This document shows positions 18,616 through 45,886 of a DNA stretch of 64,000 nucleotides, piece after piece. Origin of the DNA: Paramecium tetraurelia. Lineage: Eukaryota. Numbering within the stretch: the stretch's first letter is position 1; each line of letters begins with the position of its first letter. The notes below the pieces were generated by a model that worked only from the letters and a program-made list of their open reading frames with translations, was not told the DNA's origin and made no database searches. The stretch lies in the NCBI GenBank assembly GCA_000165425.1, contig CT868034.1, forward strand, positions 124,001-188,000. Reading direction: 5' to 3'. The translations under genes were made by a program, and so were the position numbers.

Positions 18616-18658
<43 letters not shown>

Positions 18659-19415: not shown

Positions 19416-21012
19416 TATATAATTATATATAAAATATAAGAGATATTAATAATTTTGAGTCTTAAATTGATTGATTGAATAATAATAATTTCAACAAAAT
19501 AATTTATTTTCTTCAATACTGAATATTTTTTATTGTAAAAACTTGGTTGTTAATGAGTTGATTAGACTATTGATTTTGAATACATTGTCATCAGTTCTTA
19601 ATTCACCAATTAATACCATTTCAGCAGCAATTAAATAAGTAAGATCAACTGGATAAGCATGATCTAAACCTTTGATTTTATGATGTTCAATAGATGTATT
19701 AAAATCTAAAAAGTCCTTTAGTAATTTAGGATCAAAACATTCTTATTTAACTCTAATTTTATCTTTACTAAGAATCAAAGTCTTAGATTTCACTTATTTA
19801 TGCATTTATTCTTAAGTAAATGGGAATAACCATGGATCATAAGCAATAACATTATTAACATCGACTTCTTAAGCAACACTAAGAACAGTTGCACCTCCAA
19901 ATGAATGACCAATTAAATTAATTGATAATGGTTTAAAATCAAAGAATACATCTTTAATTTGATTTGAATTCAATGTATTAATTAATTATTAAACTTGTTC
20001 AGTTCTCCATTCTAAATGAGCTGCTCTAACTTTTTAATATTTTTCAATTGTTTCTGGATAATTACCTGTATTATACATTTTAGTTCCTTTAGTATCCCAA
20101 GGATATACTAAATCATAATGTTATAATGAAAATACAACATATCCTTCACTTGCTAATTATTAACATAATGCTGTATATGCATTTCTATGTTATGAAAATC
20201 CATGACTAAATATAATTACATCTAATTCTGTATTTAATAATGGTTATTCAACACTTGCTGTAAAATTAATGAAACTATATTTAAATATATTAATTACTTT
20301 AAGAAACCTAATCCAATATCAAATACCCATTCAGATGGAACCCATTTAGTTTATAAAACAGATATTTCATACAATTATTTAGCAAATTTATTATTAGGTA
20401 ACCATTTATATTTAATATCTTCTTATTTATTATCAGCACATGGATAATAAACAGATGTATCAGTTGATAAACTATCATTTAATTTGATTTATTTATAACA
20501 AGTTCTATATTTACCTGTTGTCTTTGGAAATTCATAAACAGGATAACTTATTAAAGTCCAAATATATAAAATAGTTAATACAGCTGCTACTTAACATAAT
20601 ATTTTATCTGCAAATTACAATGCCTATTAATATAAAATGATCGAATACTCTATCAAAAAAGAAGAATGTATATGCTGCCATAATAAGAATTGAATTAAAT
20701 CTAAATCCTTCAAAAAAGTATTTCAATATTAACCATATACATAATCCAAAGAATCCAAATAAATCAAAATATGAATTATGATTAGCATGACTATTTCTAT
20801 TCAATTTATTTATTAATTATACTTTTTCACAGGTCCAACATTATCTAAATCCACTAATTTTTATTGAATTGGAAATATCACTGATTACATTTCGATCAAA
20901 ATACAGAATACAACATGAGCAGCCAATATAAATTCGAATATAAACACCTTTCTCATATATTAAATATTTATTATTTTTAATAATCAAATCAATTATCATT
21001 AGATATAATTGT
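19416..21012. repeat. ~1.6 kb direct duplication, copy 1 (copy 2 at 37166-38762)
   Basis: Colinear at offset 17750; about seven substitutions seen by eye; flanks unrelated. Confidence 0.95.
19491..20956 (-). CDS. PAF-acetylhydrolase-like alpha/beta hydrolase with N-terminal TM helices, copy 1
   Basis: PVYEFPKTTGKY, IFSHGFS.HRNAYTALCQQLASEGYVVFSLQH, nucleophile GHSFGG, YDPW, GLDHAYPVD; one 23-nt intron. Confidence 0.88.
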
Positions 21013-21200: not shown

Positions 21201-24200
21201 ATGGACTTCATTATAAAAATTGGAATAGATGGTCATCAATTCCTTTTAACACTTTAAGCAGAGAATAAACGGTATTAATTGCATAAGATTTTAGATTACA
21301 ATATCTGTAAGAATAAATTTAGATTGAAACAAAAGTTGAAGTGAAGAATTAATTACTTTTAACAAAGAAAGGAGTCAAATTGGAAGATTTAAATTAATTT
21401 GATGTTGATCAATAATTGCAATAAACAGTGTAATAGTTTCCAGATGAAAAAAAATTTTATGTAATATACAAATAATATTGGAATAGACCATATATTTATT
21501 TGATCTAAGCGAAAACCCTGAACAAGTTGTTTACCCATTTCCAAAATATGAACCTAAAATGGACCTTAAATAGTTGTTACTTTCAGAACAAGCAAAAGAA
21601 ACTCTTATTAATTTGAACTCGAACATAATTAATCATGAGAAAATATTCTTTTAGCATTTACAAAATTTGAAGAATAAATACATACCTTATTAGTAAAAGG
21701 TCAAACAATTGGAAAAGATTGGATAAGATTTGGAAAATCAAATTTAATCCTTTGATATTGTATTAAAAATGAGTAGAACTACTTATAAGAACACCAAAGC
21801 CAAGAAAGAGGAGTTGACAAAAAAATAAAAAGAATCTTTGGAAAGAAATCTGTAAACGGTTAAGAAATTTGACGACAGTTTAGAGTAACTAAAAAAAATA
21901 GAATTGCATGCTGCATTACAAACAAATTCACAAAAATATTTAAGTGACATTTATTACAAACCAGAATCAATGCTTAAATGGAAAAATAGTTGTTTAAATA
22001 CTTAATAAAATTTAAAACAAAAAATTGATAAACTTAATTAAGCAATTTCCAAATCAAAATAAAAGATAAAGAACGAAAAAACAGAAAACATGACTCAATG
22101 TTTATCAAGCTACAAAGCAAATTAACAATAATACTAATAATTCATATAAGAAAATAAATCATTATTGCAATCTGTAGTCTAATCCACTATTGATGGTAAA
22201 TGTATTTTTAATAATTAGAATACAATACTTTAAGACAATATATGATTGATTTTTCATAGGACATTAACGATGAACCAGCTATGTATTATTTATCTTAATT
22301 TGAATTATCTTAAGAGCAAATGAAATAATTTGAGGATGCAGTTACTCATATCGGTGATCATTTAGAAAAAAGTATTGATATTTAAATAATCTTAGCTAAA
22401 TAAGTATTTATGTAATTCACGTAATTAAAATAATAGAATATGTCTAAGATTTTGAAGGTATTTTAAAACTTAAGAGCTCTTGACAAAGAATTTGAATAAC
22501 ATAATGAAAAAATAAAATAATATGATGAGGAAGTGGAAAAAATGGAGAAAGACTTTTCGTATCTTTTGAATCCTGTTTTATTACCATAAGCTTACTAATA
22601 AGCTTTAATAGAAACAAGCAGAAGGAAAGAATTTAGAGATATTTTCGATAAGAAAATAAAATCATTAATGTCATTAATAGATCAAGAAAAGGACAAAAGG
22701 AAAAAATTCTTATAGTAGTATGGTAGGATATTGCCATAAGATTTTATTGGATAACTAAAAAATTTGACTCCATCAATCCAGATTATTAATGCCTTTGCGG
22801 ATGCTGAATTGCCAAACATAACTGGTTTACACACTGACACATTTAAGAAAAGATAAGATAATGATCTTGATTAATTAAAATAATAAATAGAAGACTTGAA
22901 TTAGCAATGCAAGCAAACTCATCTTTTTTATTAAGAGAAAACCACTAAGAAATCTTCAACCTATATTGATTTACTCTAATTGACTGCCAAGAATTCAATG
23001 AAGATGTTCATTTAAAGGGCTGAAAATAAACCATTATCATCAATTGATATCAATACTGATAAATCCTAAAGAGAAAATGATTCAAAACTAATAAACTTGA
23101 AGAATGAATTTAGTGAATAATTAAATAATCAGAAACAAGAATAAGAAAAATTGAAAATAAAACTATAGAAGTAAGAGTAAGATTTTGAGTCCAAATTAGT
23201 GGAAATTGATAATAAAAATAATATCATTACAGAACTTTAGTAGAAAATAGAATCCCTCTAAAATAACACTGTAAAATTAAAGGACGATTTAAATAAATAT
23301 GTAGGTAAATGTGAGAATTTAGAAATTAATTTAATTTAAAAGAATAGTGAAATTTCTAAATTACAATAATTGTAGAAATAACTCAATGATCAATTAACTT
23401 AATCTAAACAAATATAATAAGATTTAATTAAACACAAATAGTCAATCTAATAATAATGCGAAACTCAAAATGATCAAATTAATGAATTAGACTTGTTAAA
23501 TAAATAATATTTACAGTAGGTGTAGGATTATTATGATTAAGTAGAAACTCTTTAAAACGAGAGTGAAAAGTTGAAATCGAAACTTAAGATGGTCGAATTA
23601 GAAAGGGATAATAAATAAATTGAATTGGAAAAACAAATATAAGTCTACAATGAATTATTAGAAGATTATCTAGAAAAGAATTCCTAATTGGATAATTTGA
23701 ATTAAGACTAAAATGAATAGGTATAAAAGGACTTGAAATTAGAAGAAGATCAAAAGGCTCTTTAAAACAAAATAGACAATTTGGATTTAGCCTTACAACA
23801 GAAAAATAATGATTTAATTTTGATGAAAAATCACGATTAATTGCAATTATTGAAAGCACAAGATGATTTTAAAGAAATACAACTATAATATGAGGATAAA
23901 ATTAATTCTTTAACTTAAGAAAATTTGGATATGACAATTCAGATTCAATCCTTAAAAGGTTAGATTGACTATTTGAATCAAAAACAGAAATCGGAGAATA
24001 TTATTGAAGTACAATAAAAACTCAAATTATCCGATCCCTAATTTTAATTTGATTTATCTACAATTCAAATTGGCAAATAGAGTATTTTCATTCCTGCTTA
24101 AAATGATGTTTATGTTCCTTTATTACTAAAAAATATCTAGGTTTCAAATATATCTGATGACTCCTTGTCAAACACTAGCATAGATTCATCAATAAAATAA

Positions 24201-24417
24201 AAATTATATAGAGTTTAATTAACTTCAATCCCATAAACATTAAGAGAATTCATTATGTATTTTTATATATATTTTTAGGGATACTGGTTTATTATTCATT
24301 TCAGAAGTTAGTAATATCACTGAAACAGAAGAGTACTTTTAGATTAGTGTGAAATAACCGAATTATATAATAGGATTTGAAGGTTAGGATAACTAGATCA
24401 AAAGTTTTACTCTATGA
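21201..24417 (+). CDS. ATG11: ATG11/FIP200(RB1CC1)-like autophagy scaffold
   Basis: Ubiquitin-like N-terminus (LQEQIQIETKVEVKNQLLLTKKGVKL..IYLFD), motif LPQAYQQALIETSRRKEF...EKDKRKKFLQQYGRILP, long coiled coil, claw-like tail (IQIGKQSIFIP...YVP). Confidence 0.7.
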
Positions 24418-26232: not shown

Positions 26233-26815
26233 ATATTATAAATTTTTATAGGAAGTTTCTAAATTTAATTAAGTTTTTCTTTGAATTTTAAAGTTAAAAT
26301 TAAATTAGAAATTTTTATTCTCAAATTTAGAGTTAGCTTAGAGAATAAGATATTAAAATAACCAATAAAAGATTTTTTTAAATAATAACCAATTTTAAAT
26401 ATAATCACGTTAAACCAAAGTGGTTGAACGAAAGTAACCAAATTAATTTCTTTTTATATTATTAACTTTAATCAAATTGATTCCTAGTCTAAATCACCTT
26501 TTTCAAGACCAAGTTAAGTATGCAAATTAAATCCACACATAGATCTCTGTTTATTGTTATTTTATATGCCTATTTATATCCAGCAACTATCTTATTCCCT
26601 TAAATGGACAAAAGTAGTAGGCTCATAATTAAATTATGTGATGTATAATAAAATACTATATATTCTCTTCAATAACTAATATACTAATAGTGAATACTTA
26701 GATTCTTTTTAAATGCTATACAAAATTTCAATATAATTCTATATTTATGCTCAATTATTAGAAATATATATATCCTTAATATATAATTATTAAAAATACA
26801 AAAATAAAGCTAAAA

Positions 26816-29800
26816 ATGCTTGAAAGGATAAACAATTGGCCTGAAATTAATGGGAATACTAATCTTGAAAAAATCACTCTAGATACTATAAAATTAAAAT
26901 AACTCAATGGATTGTAATATGAAAATCCTGTAATGATTATATATTATTTAGGTAATAACTAATAAATGCTTGCATTTAAAAGTATGTTTTGAATTAAAGG
27001 AATTTGAAGTTTAGATTAACAATAATTAACCATTTGTTTGTAAAATCTGTAATTAAAATGCATAATAATATTCTGATCTAATGTGGGATATTAGAAATCA
27101 TGCTTATGAAGAATTTCACGAATTTGTTGATGAAATTCACATCATTTATGGATGTATGGTCAATAAATATTAGAGAAATAAAAAATATATAGACTTATTC
27201 ACTAAATTTGGCATTAAGGAACATTTTTTGAAATTAATAAGGTAAAGAGATTATTAGACAAATTTAAAGTCTCTAATTGAAAAGAATGTCTTTTAATAAA
27301 AAGCATTTTAACTTTACTGTCTTTTAGATTTTATAAAAATTAATATTCCTATTAGAATAAAAGGATGCTTGCATTTTGAATGCTATGAATTCACAAGTTT
27401 ACTATATTATTAATAAAATAATTAATAGAATTAGAACATCTTTTAATGTATTTATCCAGGATGCGAAATTCATTTAAATATTTCTAGTTTAGATACTTTT
27501 TTTGATGGAATTGTTGTTGATTAAGAACTTCTAAAAGAAATCAAGAAAAATAACCCAACTTCAATTATATTTAATATTGAGTAAGAAACTAAAACCATCA
27601 TTTAGAATACATATTTTCCTTTTTCTGAAATTTTAACTTAATACTCGAATAAATACAATTAATAATTTACAGAGTTATAATAATTAGAACTCTAAACTAG
27701 ATTTAATTAAGTCTTATAATCAATTACCCAAAGTAATTTATTACTTGATAAACCATAGTTAAAATAAAATTTATCATAAAGCACAATATCATTATAATTA
27801 TAAGATAATTTAGTTGATTAAATTACTAAATTAAAAATGGAATTACCAACAAGATGTATTAAATGTATAGATTTTAACAACTCAATTGACTTGCTAACAT
27901 ATGTTTTTGATTTTGTCTTTAAAAAACAAATTGATAATAAATAAAAGTACTCATGTCCTTTGTGTAATTAAACTTAAAATTAAATAATGGCAATTGACAA
28001 TCTAAATAAATACATTTACATTGACTAATTCTTATTATTAAAATTAATAAAATAGAAGAACGATAATAATGTATTATAATCTGAATGTGACTTTTTTGAA
28101 TCATATTTTAATAATTTATCATATGAAAATAATGTAATAGAAACAGTAATTTTTGACACATATTCATTATTGAATCACGCGACCAAAGTTAGATATAAAA
28201 ATCCAGTAAGATTGTTATATGACATAGGCTTTAACAAGAAAATGTTTACATCGAAAGACATGCTTTGAATTCAAAGAAGCTTTATAATAAATTCAATAAT
28301 AAAAACTTTATTAATGTCCACATTGCGATTAATAAGCAACTAACCTAGATGACTTAGTTTAAGATTGGAGAGTTGAAGCTTATAAAGAATTTTATGAAGA
28401 GGTTGATGAAGTAACAATAATAAAAGGGATTATGTTTAATAAATGCTGCAGAAATAAATCTAAAAATTTGAATTTTTTCACTTAGTCAAAATATGATAAG
28501 CAATTTAAACAAATATTTGAAAGAGTAGAGAATGATATGTAAATAGTATCATTAATCAGAAGAGACTTATAATAATAATAGATTTAAAACAATAATAATA
28601 AAATAATTTTCTTGTGTTTCTGTTTGTTAGATAAAGTGAAAATAAATATCCCTGTTAGAATAAGAGGATGTCAACATTATGAATGTTATGAATTAACTAG
28701 TTTATTATACTTTTAAGATTAAAATAGAAAAACAATACAATATTTAGAATGCAAACAACCATTTTGTTCAAATCGATTAAGAATTGCACACAAAAACTAT
28801 TCTATATAATCTGAATCTTATAACAGTAAAGAATTAGATGAACAATAAAAAATACTTGATATCTAAACATTATTTTCAGGCATATCTGTTGATTTGGATT
28901 TATTAAATGTCATTAAAAAGAGTAATCCAAGCTCATTCAAATTTTACTATAATAAAAAAACCGAAAATATTGAAGAAGATATAAATAAAATAGACGGCAA
29001 AGTTGTAGATCCATTCATTATAAAATTCTACGAATAACATCCAGAGTTATAAAAAAAAATGCACTACTAAGAATTCCAAAAAATCATATTACAACAGATA
29101 ATTTTAGTGGATCAAGGAGATCTCTTATAGGTGGATAGAGATATATGCAAAAAATTGGCTTTGTATAAATACAGAAATTTCCAAGTAAATATGATAGACA
29201 AATTAACATAACTTACAATTGAATATCCAGTTAGATGTAAACTTTGTCCAAATCTAGAAGTTTGTATGGATATTAGAAGTTATATTGCACAATTTATTTA
29301 TTTTAAAAAGATGTTTCCAACAAAAGGTTATGTTTGTCCATTATGTAATTAATAATTAGGATAATATATTCTACCAATGAAAATTTAAAATTACATATAT
29401 TTAGATCCAAATATACTTTCATATATGTTTAAAGACATGTCTTACACTAATGGAATTAATATTTTTGAATATAAAGGAGAATAATATTTGTGGTAAGAAT
29501 TTAATTATAGATACAAAATTAAAAGAGAAGATTATGTTTCAGATTTATATCAAAGATAGGTTGTATTTAGGCAACTGTTTTGTAATTTTAATAAAGAATT
29601 GAGAATTCAATAACCTTTAATCCTTTAACAATGTCCTTATAGAATAATTGTTGATTTTAAATCATTTTATCAAGAATTAACGAAAATAAACTTTGATTTA
29701 GAAAAATAAGGACTTATCTTATGTAGATGCAATTATTGTCATAGCAATCCCATTAAGGTTATCGCAGGATAAATCTATTTTCATGAAGCCTTTTATGAAG

Positions 29801-30236
29801 CTCTAAATAAATATTATCAAATCTAAGATAATAATCAAAATGAGTCTCACTTTACATATACATTTGCTGATACAGAGAGAGATAGTTATATCAAAACAGT
29901 TCAACTTATCTTACCTTTAAAAATTAATTCTTAAAGGGAAAATGGTAGCTTTTGGGATATGATGTCTGATGAAAAGTATCAAAGTTTATTTAGAGGATCT
30001 GAAATATAAGGGTACAAATTCAAGTTATTTGCTATTAAAATGCAAATTATATAAATACCAATCGTATTAGACAAAGAAGGAATACATGCTAATATAATGT
30101 ATAATTTCAATTAAAATATTAATGAAGAATTAAAAAAATTTTAAGTTTGTAATAAGTAGGAATTACTTTAGTATTACACCTTGGTGAAATATTTGATTTT
30201 ATTAGTGGTGATATAGAATTCTTTATAAATAAATGA
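26816..30236 (+). CDS. Poly-SP-RING (MIZ zinc finger-like) protein copy A, 7 fingers, ~1120 aa
   Basis: Repeated PxRxxxCxHxxC(F/Y)(E/D)...CxxC units, e.g. FYCLLDFIKINIPIRIKGCLHFECYE..CIYPGC and FCLLDKVKINIPVRIRGCQHYECYE..CKQPFC; 22-nt introns 26930-26951 and 28206-28227; two +1 indels near 30140-30155. Confidence 0.85.
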
Positions 30237-30788
30237 GTATTTGATAATAATATTATATAAATGAACAAAAGATGAATTATTTAGATGCCGTTGCAAACCA
30301 AATAAATCTATATATAATATTCATTTAATATATATTAATAATTTGAAATTTACTAAGTACTATCAATCAAATTTTCAAAAACAATTTTTTAATCAAAGTA
30401 GTACTAATCAACCAAAACAGAATAACATATTAAGTTTGATTAGATTCTTTAATTCCAAAATTATTATTATTATTAATTTTCTAAAATTTACTTATGATTT
30501 ATGTTATTAATTCTAAATTTTTTCTTCTGATGAATCATGTGTGATTATAAAGCTAAAATTAATTTACTTGTTTGCTAATGAAATTTTAGATCTATTTAAT
30601 AACATTTTATAATTTAATAGCATTTAGAATCATCTATTTAGTCTATTGTATTGTTAGTTATTTCATTTAATTACATATATCATTAAAGTATTCAACTTAC
30701 TTCAATTTATCAATTTAATATGAACTTATTATTTCGAAATAAAAATATAATGAAAATGATTGGTAAAAATAAGTTAAAAATATATTAA

Positions 30789-31963
30789 TCAGAATTTTGA
30801 TGGTTCAGCTGTCACAGGTTCATTTGAATCATGGCTATATCCCTCAAATTAGGCTTTATAGATCTGTAAAATATACCCTAAATAGAATTACGCCTTAGCA
30901 TAATATCATTTTCCTTTGTATCCTGCTCAGTATCCTATGTTGATCCACCCGAATTGCTATAACTACGTGGCAAGTATGGGGGCTGTAATTCTTTATTGAG
31001 TAATTTATTCCATTAAAATCCATTGAACCATGAATGATTCTTAACAGCTTCTGGATTATCGGAGCCTAATCTTTAAGCAGGTTTTCTTTGGATTAACTGA
31101 ATTAATCATCATTTTAAATTTACCTAATTTGCGAAATCAGCAGCGTCTAAGGACCATGAAGTAGGCACTTCATTTTTCTTAATTTAAACTTACTTTGCTA
31201 ACACGCTATCTCTTATTTCTTGTCTAGATCTCCCAACATATGGTCTTCTCCCCAACATACATTCATAGACAATCACTCCTAAGGCAAAATAATCTACAGC
31301 AATCCCATGATTTTATCTGCACAATACTTCTGGTGCCATATATCCTGGAGTTCCACTGGTATCAGCTGAATTGTCTGGTCTCCAAATTCTGGCTATACCC
31401 AAATCTGTTAATCGCAAATAGCCTTCTGAGTCAAATACTAAATTCTCTGGCTTTAAATCTCTATGAATTATTCCTTGTGAATGCAGATATTCTAGGGCTA
31501 TTATGATGCAGGCACAAAAAAATTCTAAAATAAAAACTGATGTTACTTGTTTCTTCTTCTGAAAATTTTTTATTTTTGCCAATATGATATCTCAGATCTC
31601 CTCCACTTAATAAATCCATAACTAAGTATAAATTCTCTCTGTCTTAGAATGCAGCAACCATATTTATTAATGATGGATGTCTAAGTTGACATAAAAGTGT
31701 CCTCTCATTCATTACTGAAGGTACGCTTTTCTTTGCAATAATTCTAAGTTTTAAAACACTAATTTACTTTGCCTTTGACATCATTTTCAATGCAAAATAA
31801 CTTTTGTTTTTTCTTTTCTTCACCTTCCAAACTTTTCCAAATCCTCCTTTTCCTAAGACTTCAATAAACTCAAAATTGTGGACAGAAAGAACTAGGATAT
31901 GTCTATTTAAGTACTTGATGAATCTGAAAAGTCTTTCTTGTCAGTAATGTTACAATTGCCCAT
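30789..31963 (-). CDS. AGC-group Ser/Thr protein kinase (YANK/STK32-like), probable N-myristoylation
   Basis: MGNC start, [43 protein letters not shown]; five tiny introns. Confidence 0.93.
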
Positions 31964-32581
31964 TATTTAATTAATTTTAAGTTATAATTCAAACTCAACG
32001 TCTTCAATTAATGCTGGGTCGACTCATTAATACACTCTCCACTTCACTTTACCCATCATATGAATGAGGTCTAAAAATAATAAAAAAATTGTTATTATAA
32101 CAACTTCAAACTATAGTCCTTATAAGATCAGATAAAAATACAAAAAGAAACTTAAAGCTAATCCTCTAATGTATATCTAATATTTTTTCAATGTTCCAAT
32201 ATTGATATTATCTATTCTAATAGGTTATTAGTTAATAATAAGGCAATATTCAAAAGTTCAGCTTCAATCACTTTACGATTTCATACAAGATAGTTGAAAT
32301 AGTGATTGTCTAAATTGTGTGCATATTTTTCGTTTATAGCTGATGCATATATTAATTATTCATTTTTAAATATTAATAAATAACTTCTAATCTAATAAGT
32401 TAAACTTTTATATTTTTTCATTTATTTATTTGATTTATAAATTTTTTATTTTTATTATGTTCATCAACTAACTATTCAGAAATTTGAAATAATATTTTTA
32501 TAAATACTTTATACTAAAATTAAATGCATAAGGATAAAAAGAATTTCTTTATTTTATAATCAAAAGTATATTTTTAGAATT

Positions 32582-34798
32582 ATGTAATATAATCCAAAAA
32601 TTCTCTAAAATATTGTTGTTTAAATTCTTAGGAAATGCAATAGTGAACTTTTTAATTATGATGTTTCCTTAAGCGCGACATAGCTTACAATAATATATAA
32701 GAATCTAATAGTGATCCTTCTAGATCTCAATTATTTTTATGTAATTTAGTGTGATAATTAATAATTAAAGTAACTAAATATGAAGTAAACAAAAAAAAGT
32801 GTTTGACAAATAACCTCTTCTATCAATTGATTATCTACTTATTTATATATAAAATAACAACAATGATATGACGTATAATTGGAAGTGCCTCTAATCGTTT
32901 TAGAATTATGTAAAAACGGATAAATTAAATAAAAACGAAAACTAAACAAAAAAAACAATAGATGTCTAGAGGTTAAATAATAAAATATGAGGTAGATATG
33001 TACGAAAGCAAATCGAAAAGAAAAAACGATAAACGCAAACAAAATCAGCAATCTCCAATCGCAGATTATGAAAATGATAAAAAAAAGGTGGGCAGGTGGA
33101 CACCCGAAGAGGATGAGAAGCTTTAAAAATTGATTGAAGGTTTTCTATTGAATTTTATTTGTAGAATATGGAGAAAAGAGTTGGCGAATCATAAGTGACA
33201 TGATGGAAGGTCGAAGTGCCATACAGTGTTTGCACAGATGGACTAAAATACTTAAACCAGGACTGAAGAAAGGTACTTTTGGTGTGTTTATAGTTTAGGA
33301 CCTTGGCAAGATGATGAGGATGAGAAGCTATTGGAATGGGTCAAGAATAATGGGCCTTGTAAATGGTCTTTATGTGCTGAAAATATTGCCGGAAGGTCAG
33401 GAAAGCAGTGCAGAGAACGATGGTTCAATAATCTCAATCCAAATGTTAAAAAAGGAGGCTGGACATCTGGTTTTTATCTAATCACTATTCGTAGAGGAGG
33501 ATCATGAAATATTTAAAGGGTATCTACAGTACTCATCATCTTGGTCAAAAATTGCTAAGAACTTATCAGGTAGAACTGAAAATTCTGTGAAGAACAGGTT
33601 TTATTCCACTGTTAGAAAATTATTGGCTGATTAAGAAAAAAATGGGATATCACTAAAGGTAAATCCATTTTATTTATTTTAGATGCTTGAGGCACAAGGA
33701 GAAAATGGCACTTCCGCTTTACAGACCTTTGTAAAAGAGCATCTATAAAAATATGAATAGCAAATGTAAATGTAAATGGAATAAGAAGAGCCTGAGTCAG
33801 ATAAATCAATGTAAGATGAAAAAGTGGAAGAATCTGAAATTAAATCTGAAGATGATGATGATAGTAAATCAAGAAAGAAAATGCAAGCAGAAACATATTA
33901 AGAATAGAACCTACTTTATAGGTTACTTAAACAATAAGGAGGACCAATAAAAAGAACTTCCTGTATGAAGGATTATTCAACAATCTATAAAAAATATAAA
34001 AAAAGGTACAACCAAAAAAAGAAAGATAAAAAATTATCAGATAAAGTTGAGAATCTAAGAAAGATGATACTTAAAAAGGAGGATTATAAAAATTCCTCAG
34101 AAGAAAAAGAATTAGACTTCTAATAAAATCTTGAACAATAATTGGCTAATTTTTCTCAATAAAAAATAGATGCTCAATCCCAAAATGGTGATTCTGATAA
34201 AATGAATGAATTCCAAGAAAAATTATTGGCATTCTTCAATCAACAATTAAATGAAGTAATGAAAAAATTTTATGTTGAAATGGGCGATCCTAAATAATAA
34301 GCCAAATGGCAAATGATTCTCGCTTCTGATGATAATAATAAAATATAATAGTAGTACTAACAATAATAGTAATAGCAATAATAATAATAATAATAATAAC
34401 AATAACAATAATAATTACAAGAAAGCAAAAAAAAAACCAAAAGACAAATTGCAAAAAGTGCTAAAGTCAAGGAAGAAGAAGTTGAATAAAATTAAATGGT
34501 TATGAATACATTCCTGCAGAAATTTAATCATCTTGGTTAAATTGGAATCACTCAATTAGGGTATCATTCTAATAATACTTTAGAGCTAATGTAAATGAGG
34601 GGAAAAATGAAACTGAAAAATTAAATGGTCTAGGATGCTAAAATTGATTAAAAAATGATGTTCCTTATTAGTTAGTTACACACTTTAGAGAATATGTTAG
34701 GCGATACAAAAAAAGAATTCAGCAGATTGGAAGCTAGTCTTTATGAAAAAATCAACAATACTTCATTTCACTCTAATAATTCGAGTGAAAAGAACTGA
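32582..34798 (+). CDS. Three-repeat (R1R2R3) Myb transcription factor
   Basis: GRWTPEEDEKL...QCLHRW, KGPWQDDEDEKL...GRSGKQCRERWFNNLNP, KGGWTSEED...GRTENSVKNRFYS; polyQ near 34350-34420; start approximate. Confidence 0.9.
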
Positions 34799-35303
34799 TA
34801 CTTAATTATTGTTATTTAAATTCTTTGATTTTGTGTCAGCCATATAAAAACCTAAAGTTTTTCTTTATTTTCTTTAACCATAATCTCAATTCTATCAAAT
34901 TATATTTAGAGATGTATGTTTGGTTATAAATGAAATTTGTGGTTTTTAAGTTTCTCCTCTCGACATTGTTACATTATCATGATTAGTACTTCAATAGAAG
35001 TTTTTTTCTTTTAAGAATTTCTAGTTTTGGCAATTACTTTATAACACTACATTTAGCTTTTGTATAAATATAATAAAATTTCTTTTAAAAATTAGTATTT
35101 TTTATTAATACAAAAAGTTAATAGAAGGATATAAATGTATATGTGTATTCCCTACAAAGAATTTACACAATACCAAAACCAATAGTTGAGTCACACACTT
35201 AGATTTTATAAAGGAATAAGTTTTACAATGTTTGGATTTACAAAAAACCTTATTTTTTTTATTATTTAGAGATATATTGAAACGAAACTTATATAATAGA
35301 ACT

Positions 35304-36144
35304 TCAAATCTTTTGTTTTGGAGTCCTTTAATGAGTTAAACCTTTGTTTTTGGTAATGTGTTTGTTTATTTTTTAATTTCTTATTTTACTTTTAGAATCT
35401 TCATTTTCTTATTTACCGATTTCAATTTCTTAAGCCTTGAGTATTTTATTATGTATATGTTTGGATAGTTTAAGAATACACTCTGTAAATTAGATTGAAT
35501 GTTCCTGAAGATATGCAACAATTGCTAGTGCGAGTTCTATATGAGAATGTTTGTAAATATCGAAATCTACATTAATTATAAACATTACCTAGGAGAATAA
35601 ATATTAACAAACTCTAGACATTTTCATTTATTTCAATATTCATTGCCAATAGATAATCTGATGAGGTAATGTAGTTTAGTTGAAATCCCATAACTTTGAT
35701 TATCTACTCTTCCATTTCATCGTACTCTCCCTTCTAGTATAGATTCTGACCATTAGAATCATATAAATTAATCTAACTCACAGTTTCTGTTTCATTAAAC
35801 TATAAATTGTTTCCATTTTTACTTTAGTTGCTAAAGAATAGGCTGAAATTCCTAGTAACTGTAGGTATTCCTAAGTTATCTTAAAATAATTAAGATAAGA
35901 ATCAATATATATGACTGCCAGTTCTATAGTTTTTAGAGAATGTCTAAATTACGAAGCTTACTAATTATAATTGAATATAGATACGGCAACAATCCATTAA
36001 ACGAGAATATCTCTTCTACATATGCCTTATGAATCATTCTAATAGAATTCATTCAACTGAATTATTGGTTTAGACTAAGAATTTTAAAAAGACAGATACT
36101 TTTTCTCGAATTAATAAATCTCTTATTTGAGAAGAATAAAGCAT
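35304..36144 (-). CDS. Cyclin (divergent cyclin-box protein)
   Basis: RRDILVQWIVAQASQF..TIELAVIYIDSYL..YLQLLGISAYSLATKFNE...EMEEQIIKVMGFQL; three tiny introns. Confidence 0.85.
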
Positions 36145-37165
36145 TCTGATTTAATATCTAAATAATAATAATAAATCATAGCCCACTTAAAATTCAAATT
36201 TATAGATAAATATTAAGGAGGGTCTTAATATTTTATCGAATCAAAGTTAAATTACAAAGTTTCATGAACAATATATACTTATATTTATCCTCTCACTAGC
36301 TTTGTGATTATTTCTAACGCCACAGTCTGTGGATCACCTTAGGATTTGAATTACAAATTAGAAAATCAACTTCTTTATTTAAAATTGCTATTGAGATAAC
36401 TAAATATCCTAATTAATGGTAATATATATTTTTAAAGTTAAATTTTTTTCTGTATTAATTAAATATAGGCATTAATTTTAGATTGATAGACTGTTAAATT
36501 AGAAAAAATGATTGTATTTCAGAAAGTTTTTAGTTTAAATTCTATTAAGTTTAGTTTTCGAATGACACTGTTATTAAATCCAATTAGATATATATTATCT
36601 ATTATAATATTAGATTTTTTTTTGAATTTTGAGAATCAAGACTTAATTGCCAAAGATCTTGAGATATAATCATTTATGAATCAATATATTGAAATTTTAA
36701 ATTTTTTTAATAATAATTCGAATAAAGAGAAATGTATATTTAGTTATTAGAAAATTAAAATACACAAAATATACAATATTAAATGAATTTACAGAAATTG
36801 TAAAATTTAATACAACAATTTTGAAAATCAAAAGAAAAATGCTAAAATTTTGTTGTTTACTGCAATTCTACGGAGTTCAACTAAATTTTAGAGAACTTGA
36901 TTATTTTATATTCTTGTTTTATAATATTGCATGTAAATTTGTGTAATTATTTTAGATATAGTAAATGCTCTGGATATTATAATCTCTTTAAATCCAAAAC
37001 CTAGATTATATTGAATAAATAATTAATAAATATTGCTTTTAAAACAGCTAAATTACTTATTACTCTAAAATATCTAAATTTCTGATAATATTCTCCAAAA
37101 TATAAGTGAATATTATGATTTTTATTAAAAATATAAATAATAAATGGAAAGATATTTCTGATAAG

Positions 37166-38762
37166 TATATAATTATATATAAAATATAAGAGATATTAAT
37201 AATTTTGAGTCTTAAATTGATTGATTGAATAATAATAATTTCAACAAAATAATTTATTTTCTTCAATACTGAATATTTTTTATTGTAAAAACTTGGTTGT
37301 TAATGAGTTGATTAGACTATTGATTTTGAATACATTGTCATCAGTTCTTAATTCACCAATTAATACCATTTCAGCAGCAATTAAATAAGTAAGATCAACT
37401 GGATAAGCATGATCTAAACCTTTGATTTTATGATGTTCAATAGATGTATTAAAATCTAAAAAGTCCTTTAGTAATTTAGGATCAAAACATTCTTATTTAA
37501 CTCTAATTTTATCTTTACTAAGAATCAAAGTCTTAGATTTCACTTATTTATGCATTTATTCTTAAGTAAATGGGAATAACCATGGATCATAAGCAATAAC
37601 AGTATTAACATCGACTTCTTAAGCAACTCTAAGAACAGTTGCACCTCCAAATGAATGACCAATTAAATTAATTGATAATGGTTTAAAATCAAAGAATACA
37701 TCTTTAATTTGATTTGAATTCAATGTATTAATTAATTATTAAACTTGTTCAGTTCTCCATTCTAAATGAGCTGCTCTAACTTTTTAATATTTTTCAATTG
37801 TTTCTGGATAATTACCTGTATTATACATTTTAGTTCCTTTAGTATCCCAAGGATATACTAAATCATAATGTTATAATGAAAATACAACATATCCTTCACT
37901 TGCTAATTATTAACATAATGCTGTATATGCATTTCTATGTTATGAAAATCCATGACTAAATATAATTACATCTAATTCTGTATTTAATAATGGTTATTCA
38001 ACACTTGCTGTAAAATTAATGAAACTATATTTAAATATATTAATTACTTTAAGAGACCTAATCCAATATCAAATACCCATTCAGATGGAACCCATTTAGT
38101 TTATAAAACAGATATTTCATACAATTATTTAGCAAATTTATTATTAGGTAACCATTTATATTTAATATCTTCTTATTTATTATCAGCACATGGATAATAA
38201 ACAGATGTATCAGTTGATAAACTATCATTTAATTTGATTTATTTATAACAAGTTCTATATTTACCTGTTGTCTTTGGAAATTCATAAACAGGATAACTTA
38301 TTAAAGTCCAAATATATAAAATAGTTAATACAGCTGCTACTTAACATAATATTTTATCTGCAAATTACAATGCCTATTAATATAAAATGATCGAATACTC
38401 TATCAAAAAAGAAGAATGTATATGCTGCCATAATAAGAATTGAATTAAATCTAAATCCTTCAAAAAAGTATTTCAATATTAACCAAATACATAATCCAAA
38501 GAATCCAAATAAATCAAAATATGAATTATGATTAGCATGACTATTTCTATTCAATTTATTTATTAATTATACTTTTTCACAGGTCCTACATTATCTAAAT
38601 CCACTAATTTTTATTGAATTGGAAATATCACTGATTACATTTCGATCAAAATACAGAATACAACATGAGCAGCCAATATAAATTCTAATATAAACACCTT
38701 TCTCATATATTAAATATTTATTATTTTTAATAATCAAATCAATTATCATTAAATATAATTGT
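37166..38762. repeat. ~1.6 kb direct duplication, copy 2 (copy 1 at 19416-21012)
   Basis: Near-identical to 19416-21012. Confidence 0.95.
37241..38706 (-). CDS. PAF-acetylhydrolase-like alpha/beta hydrolase, copy 2
   Basis: Same frame, intron and GHSFGG/YDPW/H motifs as 19491-20956. Confidence 0.88.
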
Positions 38763-38900
38763 GCTTGATTATGTATATTTATTTTAATATATATAATTAT
38801 AATTAATCATAATATTGAAGAAAAACTGTTTAATTATTTTTGATTTTGGAGAGTTAAAGTCAAAATTTATGTTTTTTAAAATAATATAAGCACGAGAAAA

Positions 38901-39722
38901 TCATTAATTCGATAGACTGTTTATTTTTTATTGTAAGATTTTTTATCTTATGCAATTAATTCTAGCTGTTATATTTTCGAGATTTTTTTCATCAATCATT
39001 TCAGGGATATATTTGTATTTTTACTATGTAATTATTCTTTCAGCTTTAAAGGCTTTCTCTAGAATCTCTTATGTAACTGGAGAGCCTTTATTTGGTGATA
39101 ATTTTGGCCTTATACCAAGTTAAGCAGTATATGCTTCAGTTCTACTGAATTTATGCTGGGATAACCTGTTTTCATTTGGAAGTTATTGATCCATGAAAAC
39201 AAGCATAGGTTGTGTTTTTAAGATTTCTTATGGTTGATAATACCCTAAAGGAGGAGTCTAATTTTCAGTTTTATATTTTTTTCCAAGCCTTGGTGAATTG
39301 CAAATATTAGTTGTAAACTTTCTCATGATTCCATCGTTAAATTCTAATTTTTAATTCAACCCTGTGAGCGGCTTTTACACTTACAATTCTGTTTCAATAT
39401 TTAATTACATTTTTTTATCAAGTTGACGCAAATGAGTTAAGCTGCACCAATCAGAATTCCCATGAGTTGAATAAATCTCTTTAAGAAATTTCACTTTTCT
39501 ATTTCTATCACTATAACTATCAATTTATTACCTTTAAGATGCTTTCGAAGTGTTAGAGGTTGTTCTATCAAAAATATGTTCACTTTTTTTATTATTTGTT
39601 CTTGAAAAAGTTCTTTTTGTAAGACCCTTTAGATTTCCTAGTTCGTCTCTTTCATCTTTAAATGGAATAAATCCAGTGCCTTCTTGCTCTGCTTTTTCCT
39701 ATAAAAATATTAAAGCTTTCAT
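38901..39722 (-). CDS. Hypothetical basic protein
   Basis: Code-6 frame MKALIFLQEKAEQEGTGFIPFKDE...ENITARINCIRQKILQQKINSLSNQ-TGA. Confidence 0.65.
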
Positions 39723-40280
39723 TTGATTTATTTATAATTTCACTTTTATATACTATGAAAGTAAATAACTAATTTAAAAATCGTATTGTACAACTTCTAT
39801 GGGTCAAAAATAAAAGATCAACATTTAAGAAATTAATCACAATAAACATATAACTGTAGGTTACTTAAGTGATGACAATATTCTCTTTCATTTAGAATCA
39901 GTTAAAGCTTACACATAGAATTAAATTAGTTTAAATATAGAAGTTAAGATTTTTAGGGATCTAATAAGTGAATTATAACATAATGATATATTGTTGCTTT
40001 TAGAATTATTATAAAGATCTTAACTATTTAGGTTGAATAATACTTTTAGTTGAATTTCTATTTGAGGAAGAAGTAAATAAATAATTCATATTTTTAGGAT
40101 CACAAATTGATTATTTGAAGAATTAATTTAGGAAATTTAATAAGGAAATTAAATATGATATATAAATTTATGAAATGGTGATATTAAAAAGTAACAAAAT
40201 ACAATAAAGTCATAAATAGAGAATATTTTATAGAAGATTATTAAGTTTTTAAGGTAAAAGAAACTATAAATATGAAACAC

Positions 40281-43200
40281 TCATTAATCTGATGAGAATC
40301 TATAATTATTACTAATAAATCCAAAAATTGAATTACTTAATTAAAAATCAATCTTAGTGATTTAAAAGTGATATTTTCTTTATTTTAGATTAATAGTTGA
40401 ATTGATATGATTCTTTGCACTGACTAGATCTACATAAATACCATCATAATCCAAATAAATTGAGAAAATGCCAATATTTATTTGCACCATTTGAAAATTT
40501 AAAGAATATCCTTTGATAGTATTTCTTCTAAACATTCTTTGAAATTTCTAATCTTAACATAAATCTTCAACAACCTAAATTAATTTATAATAGATTACAT
40601 CATTTATGATTTAACTATCTATCTCTGTATCAGCAAATATATAAGTAAAGTGAGACTCATTTTGATTATTATGTTCGATTTGATAATATTTATTAAAAGC
40701 TTCATAAAAGGCTTCATGAAAATAGATTTATCCTGCGATAAACTTAATGGGATTGCGATTACAATAATTGCATCTACATAAGATAAGTCCTTATTTTTCT
40801 AAATCAAAGTTTATTTTCGTTAATTCTTGATAAAATGATTTAAAGTCAACAATTTTTCTATCAGGACATTTTTAAAGGATTAAAGGTTACCGAATTCTCA
40901 ATTCTTTATTAACTATACAAAACAGTTGCCTAAATACAACCTATCTTTGATATAAATCTGAAACATAATCTTCTCTTTTAATTTTGTATCTATAATTAAA
41001 TTCTTACCACAAATATTATTCTCCTTTATATTCAAAAATATTAATTCCATTAGTGTAAGACATGTCTTTAAACATATATGAAAGTATATTTGGATCTAAA
41101 TATATGTAATTTTAAATATTCATTCGTAGAATTTATTATCCTAATTATTAATTACATAATGGACAAACATAACCTTTTGTTGGAAACATCTTTTTAAAAT
41201 TAGTAAAATGTGCAATATAACTTCTGATATCCATACAAACTTCTAGATTTGGACAAAGTTTACATCTAACTGGATATTCAATTGTAAGTTATGTCAATTG
41301 GTCTATCATATTTACTTAGTAATTTCTGTATTTATACAAATTCAATTATTTGCTTATGTTTTGCTCTTCTTAAAGAAGTCCTCCTTGGGTCACTAAAATT
41401 GTCTATTATTATATGATTTTTTGGAATTCTTAGTATTGCATTTTTTATTATACATCTGGATGTTGTAAATAGAATTTTGCAATGAATGGATCCACAGCTT
41501 TGCCGTCTATTTTATTCATATCTNNNNNNNNNNNNNNNNNNNNNNNNNNNNNNNNNNNNNNNNNNNNNNNNNNNNNNNNNNNNNNNNNNNNNNNNNNNNN
41601 NNNNNNNNNNNNNNNNNNNNNNNNNNNNTAATGATACTATTTACATATCATTCTCTACTCTTTCAAATATTTGTTTAAATTGCTTATGATATTCTGACTA
41701 AGTGAAAAAATTCAAATATTTAGATTTATTTCTGCAGCATTTATTAAACATAATCCCTTTTATTATTGTTACTTCATCAACCTCTTCATAGAATTCTTTA
41801 TAAGCTTCAACTCTCCAATCTTAAACTAAGTCATCTAGGTTAGTTGCTTATTAATCGCAATGTGGACATTAATAAAGTTTTTATTATTGAATTTATTATA
41901 AAGCTTCTTTGAATTCAAAGCATGTATTTCGATGTAAACATTTTCTTGTTAAAGCCTATGTCATATAACAATCTTACTGGATTTTTATATCTAACTTTAT
42001 TTATACAATGTAGTTAGAAAGTGTCAAAAGTTATTGTTTCTATTACATTATTTTCATATGATAAATTATTAAAATATGATTCAAAAAAGTCACATTCAGA
42101 TTAGAATACATTATTATCGTTTTTCTGTTTTATTAATTTTAATAATAAGAATTAGTCAATGTAAATGTATTTATTTAGATTGTCAATTGCCATTATTTAA
42201 TTTTAAGTTTAATTACACAAAGGACATGAGTACTTTTATTTATTATCAATTTGTTTTTTAAAGACAAAATCAAAAACATATGTTAGCAAGTCAATTGAGT
42301 TGTTAAAATCTATACATTTAATACATCTTGTTGGTAATTCCATTTTTAATTTAGTAATTTAATCAACTAAATTATCTTATAATTATAATGATATTATGCT
42401 TTATGATAAATTTTATTTTAACTATGGTTTATCAAGTAATAAATTACTTTGGGTAATTGATTATAAGACTTAATTAAATCTAGTTTAGAGTTCTAATTAT
42501 TATTACTCTGTAAATTATTAATTGTATTTATTCGAGTATTAAGTTAAAATTTCAGAAAAAGGAAAATATGTATTCTAAATGATGGTTTTAGTTTCTTACT
42601 CAATATTAAATATAATTGAAGTTGGGTTATTTTTCTTGATTTCTTTTAGAAGTTCTTAATCAACAACAATTCCATCAAAAAAAGTATCTAAACTAGAAAT
42701 ATTTAAATGAATTTCGCATCCTGGATAAATACATTAAAAGATGTTCTAATTCTATTAATTATTTTATTAATAATATTTTTTTTTTGTGAATTCATAGCAT
42801 TCAAAATGCAAGCATCATCCTTTTATTCTAATAGGAATATTAATTTTTATAAAATCTAAAAGACAGTAAAGTTAAAATGCTTTTTATTAAAAGACATTCT
42901 TTTCAATTAGAGACTTTAAATTTGTCTAATAATCTCTTTACCTTATTAATTTCAAAAAATGTTCCTTAATGCCAAATTTAGTGAATAAGTCTATATATTT
43001 ATTATTTCTCTAATATTTATTGACCATACATCCATAAATGATGTGAATTTCATCAACAAATTCGTGAAATTCTTCATAAGCATGATTTCTAATATCCCAC
43101 ATTAGATCAGAATATTATTATGCATTTTAATTACAGATTTTACAAACAAATGGTTAATTATTGTTAATCTAAACTTCAAATTCCTTTAATTCAAAACATT

Positions 43201-43367
43201 CTTTTAAATGCAAGCATTTATTAGTTATTACCTAAATAATATATAATCATTACAGGATTTTCATATTACAATCCATTGAGTTATTTTAATTTTATAGTAT
43301 CTAGAGTGATTTTTTCAAGATTAGTATTCCCATTAATTTCAGGCCAATTGTTTATCCTTTCAAGCAT
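40281..43367 (-). pseudogene. Poly-SP-RING copy B (7-finger type) with in-frame TGA and assembly gap
   Basis: Inverted near-identical match to copy A from 22 nt upstream of the ATG; GGA TGA TGC at 42815-42817 where A has GGA TGC; diverged C-terminal domain from ~40610; N-gap inside. Confidence 0.7.
41524..41628. other. Assembly gap (105 N)
   Basis: Run of N; homology to copy A suggests about 420 bp is missing (A ~28555-28976, including finger 5). Confidence 0.95.
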
Positions 43368-43756
43368 TTTTAGCTTTATTTTTGTATTTCTATTATTAAA
43401 AATTAAATAGCAAAATCTAATAATAATGATTAATAGCGATTACTAATTATATCAAATAATTAAGTTAAAATAAGGAATTATTTTGATATTTTAAAAAGAA
43501 GGCAAAAGTAATATTTACAAAACTAATAATAATTTTGGAATTAAAGAATCTAATCAAACTTAATATGTTATTCTGTTTTGGTTGATTAGTACTACTTTGA
43601 TTAAAAAATTGTTTTTGAAAATTTGATTGATAGTACTTAGTAAATTTCAAATTATTAATATATATTAAATGAATATTATATATAGATTTATTTGGTTTGC
43701 AACGGCATCTAAATAATTCATCTTTTGTTCATTTATATAATATTATTATCAAATAC

Positions 43757-45886
43757 TCATTCATTTATCCAAAATTCCATTCCACCATCAATAAAATCAA
43801 AGATTTCATTAAGGTAAATTTCTAATTTAATCATACGCACTTTAAAACCATATTATTTTAATTTTTGATCAATACGTTAATTGAAATTCTACATTGCTTG
43901 TTCCATATCAACATATATACCTTATTAATCTAATACGATTGGGATTTGCATAATGTTTAGAAATTAATAGCAAATAACTTGAATTTGTACCCTTATATTT
44001 CAGATCCTCTAAATAAACTTTGATACTTTTCATCAGACATCATATCCCAAAAGCTACCATTTTCCCTTTAAAAATTAATTTTTAAAGGTAAGATAAGTTG
44101 AACTGTTTTGATATAACTATCTCTCTCTGTATCAGCAAATGTATATGTAAAGTGAGACTCATTTTGATTATTATCTTAGATTTGATAATATTTATTTAGA
44201 GCTTCATAAAAGGCTTCATGAAAATAGATTTATCCTGCGATAAACTTAATGGGATTGCGATAACAATAATTGCATCTACATAAGATAAGTCCTTATTTTT
44301 CTAAATCAAAGTTTATTTTCTTTAATTCTTGATAAAATGATTTAAAATCAACAATTTTTCTATCAGGACAATTGTAAAGAATTAAAGGTTACCGAATTCT
44401 CAATTCGAAATTTACTCTACAAAACAATTGCCTAAATACAACAATTCTATCTAATAAACTTGCAACATAATCTTCTCTTTTAATCTTTTATCTATTTTTA
44501 AAATCCTAAAGCATATATTATTCACCATGATATTCAAAAATTTTGGTATCAATAATATTAGACATATTCTAATACATATAGGAAAGTATATTTGGATCTA
44601 AATATATGTAATTTTAAATATTCATTCGTAAAATTTATTATCCTAATTATTAATTACATATTGGACAAGAAAATCCTTTTGCTAGAAAAAATTTTTTAAA
44701 ATAAATAAATTGTGCAATATAACTTCTAATATCCATACAAACTTCTAGATCTCTACAAAGTTTACATCTAACTGGATATTCAATTGTAAGTTATGTTAAT
44801 TTGTCTATCATATTTACTTAGTAATTTCTGTATCTTTACAAAGTTAATTATTTGCTCAAATCTTGCTCTTCTTAAAGAAGTCCTCCTTGGGTTGCTAAAA
44901 TTGTCTATTATTATATTATTTTTTGGAATTCTTAGTATTACATTTTTTATTATACATCTGGATGTTGTAAATAAAATTTTACAATGAATGGATCTACAGC
45001 TTTGCCGTCTATTTTATTTATATCTTCTTCAATATTTTCGGTTTTTTTATTATAGTAAAATTTGAATGAGCTTGGATTACTCTTTTTAATGACATTTAAT
45101 AAATCCAAATCAACAGATATGCCTGAAAATAATGTTTAGATATCAAGTATTTTTTATTGTTCATCTAATTCTTTACTTATAGGTACAGATTATATAGAAT
45201 AGTTTTTGTGTGCAATTCTTAATCGATTTGAACAAAATGGTTGTTTGCATTCTAAATATTATATCTTTTTTCTATTTTCAATTTAAAAGTTTAATAAACT
45301 AGTTAATTCATAACATTCATAATGTTGACATCCTCTTATTCTAACAGGGATATTTATTTTCACTTTATCTAACAAACAAAAACACAAATAAATTATTTTA
45401 TTATTATTGTTTTAAATCTATTATTATTATAAGTCTCTTCTGATTAATGATACTATTTACATATCATTCTCCACTCTTTCAAATATTTGTTCAAATTGCT
45501 TATAATATTCTGGCTAAGTGAAAAAATTCAAATATTTATATTTATTTCTACAGCATTTATTAAACATCATCCCTTTTATTATTATTACTTCATCAACCTC
45601 TTCATTAAATTCTTTATAAGCTTCAACTCTCCAATCTTAAACTAAATCATATTTGCTAAATGCTTATTAATTACAATGTGGACATTAATAAAGTTTTTAT
45701 TATTGGATTTCTTTTAAAGCTTCCTCCAATTCAAAACAAGCTTTATGATGTAAGCAATTTTTAGTTAATGCCTATGTCATATTATATTGTTACTGGATTT
45801 CTATATCTTTCTTTGGTCACGGGATTCAATAGTGAAAATGTGTCAAAAATAATCGAATTCAAGGCTTAATTATTAAAATATTACAT
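43757..45886 (-). CDS. Poly-SP-RING copy C, 4 fingers, ~700 aa
   Basis: MQYFNNQALNSIIFDTFSLLNPVTKERYRNP[22-nt intron 45772-45793]ALTKNCLHHKACFELE...CPHC; colinear with fingers 4-7 and tail of A; one -1 indel near 43955. Confidence 0.85.

Follow-up and report, generated by a model that had tools for sequence, protein, structure and literature searches.

To our knowledge, every characterised SP-RING ligase, including those met in the searches made here, has a single finger. A cluster of three related genes of Paramecium tetraurelia raises the question of what chains with four to seven such fingers might do. The cluster lies in a stretch of 64,000 nucleotides (nt) of contig CT868034.1 (GenBank assembly GCA_000165425.1, positions 124,001–188,000 of the forward strand), referred to here as the window. 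It comprises gene A (26816–30236, + strand), with seven modules and 1117 amino acids (aa); gene B (40281–43367, − strand), which follows the same seven-module plan in interrupted form, as seen from its frames, introns and similarity to A; and gene C (43757–45886, − strand), with four modules, equivalent to modules 4–7 of A, plus a C-terminal domain, in a frame broken by two extra nt near 43955. A sequence-only reading of the window had taken these modules for tandem SP-RING-like zinc fingers. As judged by profile searches and alignments, the assignment of the modules to the SP-RING domain is sound and the tandem array is real. The reading favoured here, with a probability of roughly 0.55, is that the genes belong to a Paramecium family of SP-RING-derived arrays whose members may have an E3-like role in the SUMO pathway; a SUMO-E3-like function is probable for the family on the strength of its sequences.

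The G+C content across the window is 21–37%, its long frames are open only under translation table 6, and its introns are of the GTA...TAG type and 22–23 nt long, features that point to Paramecium; the window is part of a macronuclear scaffold. Under these rules gene A was modelled with exons at 26816–26929, 26952–28205, 28228–30148 and 30172–30236, the last three bases being the TGA stop. The removal of three introns (22, 22 and 23 nt) left an open frame of 1117 codons with no internal stop, in agreement with the product of about 1120 aa first proposed, and A is the sole copy in the window with an uninterrupted frame. Intron 1 (26930–26951, 22 nt, GTA...TAG) lies within module 1, directly downstream of its ...ENP codons, and an identical intron was found in B at 43253–43232. 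Intron 2 (28206–28227, 22 nt) lies in module 4 at the site equivalent to that of intron 1 in module 1. Both introns are common to B, and the public model of C (P0001) splices RYRNP to ALTKNC at the same position as intron 2 of A. The third intron (30149–30171, 23 nt, GTA...TAG) is a prediction only. At this point A is 2 nt longer than C, and the tail that A shares with C and the orthologues is restored only by the removal of these 23 nt; left unspliced, the frame would continue to a TGA at 30262–30264 with an unrelated tail.

The seven modules of A, all on the + strand, lay within about 15 nt of the positions proposed for them. Module 1 (26879–27089, split by intron 1) has the pattern C-x-H...C-x2-C and matched the Pfam domain zf-MIZ (PF02891) at E 0.044 with its exon-2 part. 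Module 2 (27315–27464) reads C-L-L-D...P-I-R...C-x-H-x2-C...C-x4-C (zf-MIZ E 1.2e-6, 28.6 bits), and module 3 (27816–28025) reads P-T-R-C-x2-C...C-P-L-C, with Asp at the position of the His (E 5.1e-3). Module 4 (28152–28365, split by intron 2) follows C-x-H...C-P-x-C (E 5.8e-4), while module 5 (28615–28767), the most conserved of all, follows C-x-H-x2-C...C-x4-C (E 2.2e-7, 31 bits). Module 6 (29197–29406) resembles module 3 in its P-V-R-C-x2-C...C-P-L-C, here with Asn at the His position (E 4.5e-4). Module 7 (29566–29787) is degenerate (C...P-L...C...C-x-C-x2-C) and had no Pfam hit.

When whole exons or proteins were scanned, zf-MIZ exceeded its gathering score of 33.5 bits in exon 2 of A (33.9 bits), in exon 3 of A (41.7) and in C (47.4), well above the level expected by chance for such a pattern. 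When the modules of A were scanned singly, zf-MIZ ranked first for five of them and second for module 1, and was absent for module 7. The scan of individual modules foreseen in the sequence-only reading was thus borne out for zf-MIZ in six of the seven, each below the cut-off on its own, and failed for zf-Nse (PF11789), which stayed under its cut-off of 27 bits throughout: 10.2 bits in module 6, 17.9 in the relative P0006 and 24.9–26.8 in a sister Paramecium subfamily of 575–603 aa. All 13 relatives scanned contained zf-MIZ, 11 of them above the cut-off. The same window offered an internal control in the form of a Siz/PIAS-like gene (approximately 15415–18797, + strand) lying outside the cluster, 10 kb upstream of it. 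Its one canonical SP-RING, expected at about 17130–17270, was found as a zf-MIZ match at 17121–17270 (+ strand; 55.5 bits, E 4.8e-15, profile positions 1–49 of 50). SAP, PINIT and PHD domains, predicted to be missing from the arrays, had no Pfam match in A, C or 11 Paramecium relatives. The linkers between modules are 22–71 aa long and leave no room for a PINIT domain, which measures about 150 aa.

To compare the family with known structures, a profile built on 14 proteins with four modules (alignment A2) and another of the 575–603 aa subfamily (alignment A5) were used against the PDB. The top four of the nine matches to A2 were Siz2, Siz1, PIAS2 and again Siz1 (E 3.7e-5 to 0.026); the other five, with E values of 0.3–1, were a consensus zinc finger and RING1B/RING2. 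The match of module 4 to Siz2 (6u75, E 3.7e-5) and Siz1 ran past the finger into the next helix/strand segment, only the first helix/strand after the finger being aligned, and that of module 5 to PIAS2 (4fo9) took in the stretch preceding the finger. Because these alignments extend beyond the finger, the repeated unit is best described as an SP-RING with Siz/PIAS flanks. Module 4 was also the one that best matched the PIAS-like SP-RING of the window (hhalign E 1.5e-5). With A5, all six matches were SUMO ligases, namely Siz1 (two chains), Siz2, PIAS2, PIAS3 and NSE2 (2yu4, E 5.9e-3); the fourth unit of this subfamily is a canonical SP-RING that matched Siz1 at E 4.8e-12 over 109 aligned positions. 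A2 and A5 aligned with each other with a probability of 99.8 (E 4.1e-29) over 441 collinear columns, which set module 7 against the canonical fourth SP-RING of the sister subfamily; no other result speaks as strongly for module 7 being an SP-RING in degenerate form. Comparisons between modules by hhalign gave P values of 9.5e-5 to 3.8e-4 in four of six pairs, the value for module 5 against module 7 being 3.8e-4. Pfam, the PDB searches and the profile–profile comparisons thus agree that the modules derive from the SP-RING, as the sequence-only reading had it. The highest-scoring language-model neighbour of P0006 (0.86) was of the zf-MIZ/zf-Nse kind, a lead only; the C-terminal domain had no usable match of this sort.

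The same searches bear on the alternative that the modules recruit the E2 of ubiquitin, or of another ubiquitin-like protein, in place of Ubc9, making the proteins multi-RING ubiquitin ligases. RING1B/RING2 chains did appear among the weak PDB matches (E 0.63–0.99), and U-box and RING clusters among the language-model neighbours (scores of 0.79–0.83, again leads only). However, all the significant profile matches were SUMO E3 ligases, the single-zinc pattern C-x-H...C-x2-C without a second zinc site is the signature of the SP-RING and not of C3HC4 fingers, and the alignment of module 4 continues into a Siz-specific segment after the finger. We therefore regard this alternative as very improbable.

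An alignment of the seven A modules with the canonical PIAS-like SP-RING of the window showed only three invariant columns, one holding the Cys of the first ligand and the other two the last Cys pair. The single zinc site, C-x-H...C-x2-C or C-x4-C, is complete in modules 1, 2, 4 and 5, but not in modules 3, 6 and 7. An additional Cys precedes the first ligand by three residues in modules 3 and 6 (R-C-x2-C) and the last pair by two residues in module 7 (C-x-C-x2-C), such that four invariant or nearly invariant Cys are kept in each of the three. The sequence-only reading was right about the missing His in fingers 3 and 6 and about the degeneracy of finger 7, but its view of them as pseudo-fingers needs modifying, in that simple decay does not describe them: Cys residues were both kept and gained, and conservation is no lower in module 7 than in module 6, which fits a swap of ligands better than a loss of zinc.

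Across paralogues, 27 of the 28 predicted zinc-ligand positions are invariant. For modules 4–7 the figure is 15 of 16 in 14 four-module rows whose identity falls to 22%, while only 31 of 677 positions overall are invariant in the same rows; the corresponding hypergeometric value, 2.5e-21, is descriptive only, since the ligands were chosen from the motif and partly with the alignments in view. In those 14 rows, 17 of the 34 Cys/His residues of P0001 are invariant, among them C367, C370, C400 and C403 of module 6 (P0001 numbering; 14 of 14 rows). For modules 1–3, all 12 predicted ligands are invariant in six seven-module rows: C6, H8, C30 and C33 of module 1, C139, H141, C166 and C171 of module 2, and C302, C305, C335 and C338 of module 3. 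Mean pairwise identity was highest in the core of module 5 (0.61), followed by modules 7 (0.47), 6 (0.45) and 4 (0.38), and was lowest in the C-terminal domain (0.21). Module 5 also has an invariant hydrophobic residue after its first Cys, within what in Nse2 is the E2-contacting loop. In modules 1/4 and 2/5 an aromatic residue stands two places before the third ligand, a position that is important in PIAS proteins. After module 7, an acidic-hydrophobic stretch, G-F-L-D-L-M-x-D-E-E-Y-Q, is recognisable (loosely in some cases) in 11 of the 13 rows that include the region; it resembles a SUMO-interacting motif and may be taken as a candidate lead only.

The arrangement of the array suggests how it arose. 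Exon 2 of A (modules 1–3) is collinear with exon 3 (modules 4–6), with 33% identity over 405 aa (E 3e-60), and modules 1 and 4 each have an intron at the equivalent position; the seven-module form is thus the product of a tandem duplication, at the DNA level, of a three-module block. A tree was built from 15 rows, leaving out four divergent proteins (P0016, P0017, P0018 and P0043), P0012, which is a public fragment, and every short fragment. In this tree the C-terminal halves of the seven-module proteins did not group together; instead, they grouped by species or locus with the four-module proteins. The groups were A, B and C of P. tetraurelia (support 100/100), P0002 and P0003 of P. octaurelia (100/99), P0007, P0057 and P0011 of P. 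primaurelia/pentaurelia (100/100), and P0004 and P0006 of P. tetraurelia, both located on another scaffold (98/98). Branches between sibling species were long. This pattern fits gene conversion between the seven- and four-module gene types, or repeated duplication, and suggests that conversion between the two types has recurred in several species of the P. aurelia complex.

Genes B and C carry lesions that the sequence-only reading had not recorded. It had assigned B the same seven-finger plan as A, and six of the seven modules (1–4, 6 and 7) are indeed visible along 43367–40281 (− strand). A run of 105 N (41524–41628) takes the place of about 422 nt of A, module 5 among them; it covers the expected place of module 5 of B, which is why this module is not visible. 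Further, an insertion of GAT created an in-frame TGA in module 2 (42815–42817, − strand). B is 97.5% identical to A over the first 1.78 kb and 92.5% over modules 6–7; its tail is of the type found in the seven-module proteins P0002 of P. octaurelia and P0057 of P. primaurelia, and its C-terminal 378 aa match the public model P0012 (GSPATT00034334001) letter for letter. B is probably a pseudogene or a misassembled copy. C starts at an ATG at 45886 (− strand) and does carry the four fingers ascribed to it: module 4 at 45847–45634, module 5 at 45384–45232, module 6 at 44805–44596 and module 7 at 44436–44215. Its sequence matches the public model P0001 (GSPATT00034336001) letter for letter, and from module 4 to past the stop it shares 89.6% identity with A. 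An open frame of 661 codons spans its four modules, but the two extra nt near 43955 cause a +2 frameshift that puts its last 65 or so codons out of frame, so that the public model ends early, at 43831, in an unrelated tail. Introns that might rescue the TGA of B or the frameshift of C were sought and rejected, there being no GTA...TAG candidate at either place.

These lesions raise the possibility that the local cluster is largely debris, with B, C and possibly A decaying, and that any function resides in paralogues elsewhere, such as GSPATT00016191001 and GSPATT00016165001. Along with the TGA within module 2 of B, the +2 frameshift of C and the 2 extra nt in the tail of A, this explanation would account for the mosaic structure of A, which joins a B-like 5′ part to a C-like 3′ part and the 3′ flank of C, and for the failure to find the A protein in the public collection. 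It would also fit the ratios of nonsynonymous to synonymous substitution rates (dN/dS), which were 0.56 for A and B over exon 2 and 0.54 for A and C over modules 4–7. On the other hand, the frame of A runs uninterrupted across seven modules and that of C across its four, A, B and C are identical at all ligand positions, and the lesions might be errors of a draft assembly. We consider wholesale decay of the cluster possible though rather unlikely. Since dN/dS is about 0.5, the local copies are under relaxed constraint or evolving fast, and this value together with the lesions of B and C weakens the case for all three local genes being functional. The cluster consists of one intact copy (A), one that is probably dead (B) and one that is truncated (C), lacking its normal C-terminal residues, about 65 in number.

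Several observations weigh against the favoured reading, i.e. a family of SP-RING arrays with an E3-like role in the SUMO pathway. No module of A reaches the zf-MIZ cut-off by itself (14–31 bits), and module 7 has no hit. The His ligand is absent from modules 3 (Asp), 6 (Asn) and 7 (Tyr), and the argument from the aromatic residue rests on Trp mutants of PIAS proteins. To the in-frame stop of B and the frameshift of C must be added the dN/dS values among the three genes, 0.37–0.92 by segment and about 0.5 overall, which appear relaxed for a core enzyme; dS is uneven along the gene. Finally, the conserved tail of A and its end at 30236 depend on the putative 23-nt intron, and no product of A was found in a collection of 5.8 billion proteins among entries of 352–3200 aa. 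The arrays might instead be non-catalytic zinc-finger scaffolds in which the SP-RING has been reused for binding proteins or SUMO, for example as adaptors or as competitive sinks for Ubc9. Such a role would suit modules that individually score below the threshold, the loss of His in three of the seven, the lack of a SAP or PINIT domain to position the substrate, and fast evolution, reflected in a dN/dS of about 0.5 and in the long branches between sibling species. Nevertheless, modules 1, 2, 4 and 5 keep their ligands, the Pro-x-Arg, the C-x-H and the C-P-x-C across paralogues of 22–30% identity, and the fourth module of the sister subfamily remains close enough to Siz1 to match it at E 4.8e-12. 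A purely non-catalytic role is thus judged unlikely.

The family was seen chiefly in one group of ciliates. With exon 3 of A as the query against the protein collection, all 12 matches of 352–1120 aa came from the P. aurelia complex, and the one longer match came from P. primaurelia. A family profile searched against 1.84 billion representative proteins gave 39 matches at E ≤ 1e-3. Taxa were looked up for ten of the longer ones: eight were from Paramecium, one was a metagenome protein (P0044) and one was a record from a mite, whose four complete PIAS-like units probably reflect a fusion of tandem genes. The remaining 29 included 19 pieces of 37–100 aa. P0044 (718 aa) and its relative P0058 (696 aa), also from a metagenome, each carry four zf-MIZ stretches, and P0058 was the sole relative found when P0044 was used as the query in the protein collection. 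These stretches are canonical, and the four-finger layout thus exists in at least one other organism. Metagenome scans with the family alignment and with P0044 confirmed no relative. In the searches made, the family thus appears only in species of the P. aurelia complex and in these two metagenome proteins.

Some members are labelled 'SP-RING-type domain-containing protein' in UniRef, so the domain as such has already been annotated automatically. In keeping with the sequence-only reading, which knew of no characterised protein of this architecture, none with a tandem SP-RING layout was found in the literature searched; the wording 'two SP-RING' appears in a single preprint. The identifiers GSPATT00034336, 34334, 16191, 16165, 11056 and 09571 were not mentioned in the literature searched, and none of the family identifiers searched for was found in the readable supplements of PMC3091696 and PMC5485702. 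Likewise, the literature searched contained no report of a Paramecium SUMO E3, and the accessible part of the Tetrahymena Ema2 paper (PMC10830130) makes no mention of tandem SP-RING proteins. By sequence comparison, the layout represents an uncharacterised form of an established domain family, and such proteins already sit unremarked in public protein sets.

The closest relatives of known structure are the Siz/PIAS ligases (yeast Siz1 and Siz2, human PIAS1–4), which share the C-x-H...C-P-x-C ligands and the aligned flanks. These proteins have one SP-RING per chain, together with SAP, PINIT and a full SP-CTD, whereas the present family has four or seven SP-RING-derived units and lacks all of these further domains. 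Precedents for chains that combine more than one E2-docking or RING unit, only some of them catalytic, are RanBP2, with its IR1-M-IR2 region, and multi-RING ubiquitin ligases, for instance Mind bomb; RanBP2, however, has no RING, and the RINGs of Mind bomb are few and of the C3HC4 ubiquitin type. P0044 and P0058 share the four zf-MIZ stretches (111.8 bits in all for P0044), the last of the C-x4-C type, but they match the Paramecium profile weakly (E 6.8e-5) and their fingers are nearer to the canonical pattern. According to the accessible part of PMC8636563, Nse2 has a last ligand pair of the form C-x4-C and a loop that contacts the E2. Modules 2 and 5, with C-x-H...C-x4-C, have this same spacing, which agrees with their earlier description as Nse2-like. 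Nse2/Mms21 differs, however, in having a single finger on a helical arm that binds Smc5, and zf-Nse remained below its cut-off in the present family. Among ciliate proteins with an SP-RING, Tetrahymena Ema2 has an atypical one; it binds Ubc9 in vitro, and SUMOylation at the conjugation stage depends on it (PMC10830130, accessible part); only one SP-RING is described there, and Ema2 was not among the 39 matches to the family profile.

Taken together, the comparisons suggest the following model. The core layout would comprise four units, each an SP-RING with short Siz/PIAS flanks, and the seven-unit form would have arisen when a block of three units, together with its intron, was duplicated in tandem. 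The proteins would act as E3-like factors in the SUMO pathway. Units 2/5 and 1/4, which have the full set of ligands, the hydrophobic E2-loop residue and the aromatic residue before the third ligand, are for these reasons the likely docking sites for Ubc9~SUMO. In units 3/6 and 7, where an extra Cys would replace the His, the fingers are more probably structural or partner-binding. SUMO is needed for DNA elimination in Paramecium (PMC10830130 and PMC3091696, accessible parts, citing Matsuda and Forney 2006); on that account these genes might conceivably take part in developmental DNA elimination. A bolder version, which we think quite improbable, holds that all seven units bind zinc, with a new Cys for each lost His, and that the chain docks several Ubc9~SUMO, or Ubc9, SUMO and substrate together. 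The product would then be a processive, multi-headed SUMO ligase that evolves fast, is kept uniform by gene conversion and serves the SUMO-dependent steps of macronuclear development. If true, this would be a kind of ligase described in no organism.

The surroundings of the cluster were also inspected. The 87 nt at 26627–26713, upstream of A, are 91% identical to 46053–45965, upstream of C, while the final 40 nt before the ATG of A match B; the 5′ flank of A is therefore itself a mosaic of both neighbours. A direct segmental duplication (19387–21012 and 37135–38762; 98.9% identity over 1.6 kb) carries in each copy a gene for a PAF-acetylhydrolase-like alpha/beta hydrolase (PF03403, E 3.4e-26) and, together with the inverted arrangement of A and B, indicates recent rearrangement of the scaffold. 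The Siz/PIAS-like gene has a PHD-like Cys/His stretch in the frame 16197–16667 and long poly-Q tracts, which correspond to TAA and ATA repeats at 17916–18083 and 18578–18683. Genes for a coiled-coil protein (21448–24320, +; a sub-threshold ATG17-like match of 30.9 bits versus 43), a Myb-domain protein (33152–34795, +) and a protein with a cyclin N-terminal domain (35781–36365, −) lie among or around the copies, with no evident link to SUMO. Further away are a tRNA-Val (AAC) gene (365–439, −), a gene for an MTR4/SKI2-like helicase (3184–6299, +; DEAD, MTR4 stalk and beta-barrel, DSHCT), a large Paramecium surface-antigen gene (51831–58431, +; PF01508, 711 bits, 21 stretches) with a 231-nt tandem repeat at 54107–55005, and a helicase fragment with an AAA_12 domain (59158–61928, −), for which UPF1-like is a guess. 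No Rfam family was found in 26000–46500.

The presence of four to seven fingers per chain, kept across sibling species and in old paralogues, asks whether SP-RING units can work in series. Serial SP-RINGs might be used for chain building, for multi-site modification or for buffering of the E2, or the fold might prove to be a general interaction module. Units 3, 6 and 7, with their exchanged ligands, would provide a natural series with which to define the minimal needs of an SP-RING. For Paramecium itself, since DNA elimination requires SUMO and no Paramecium E3 was found reported, the poly-SP-RING genes and the neighbouring PIAS-like gene would be natural candidates for RNA interference.

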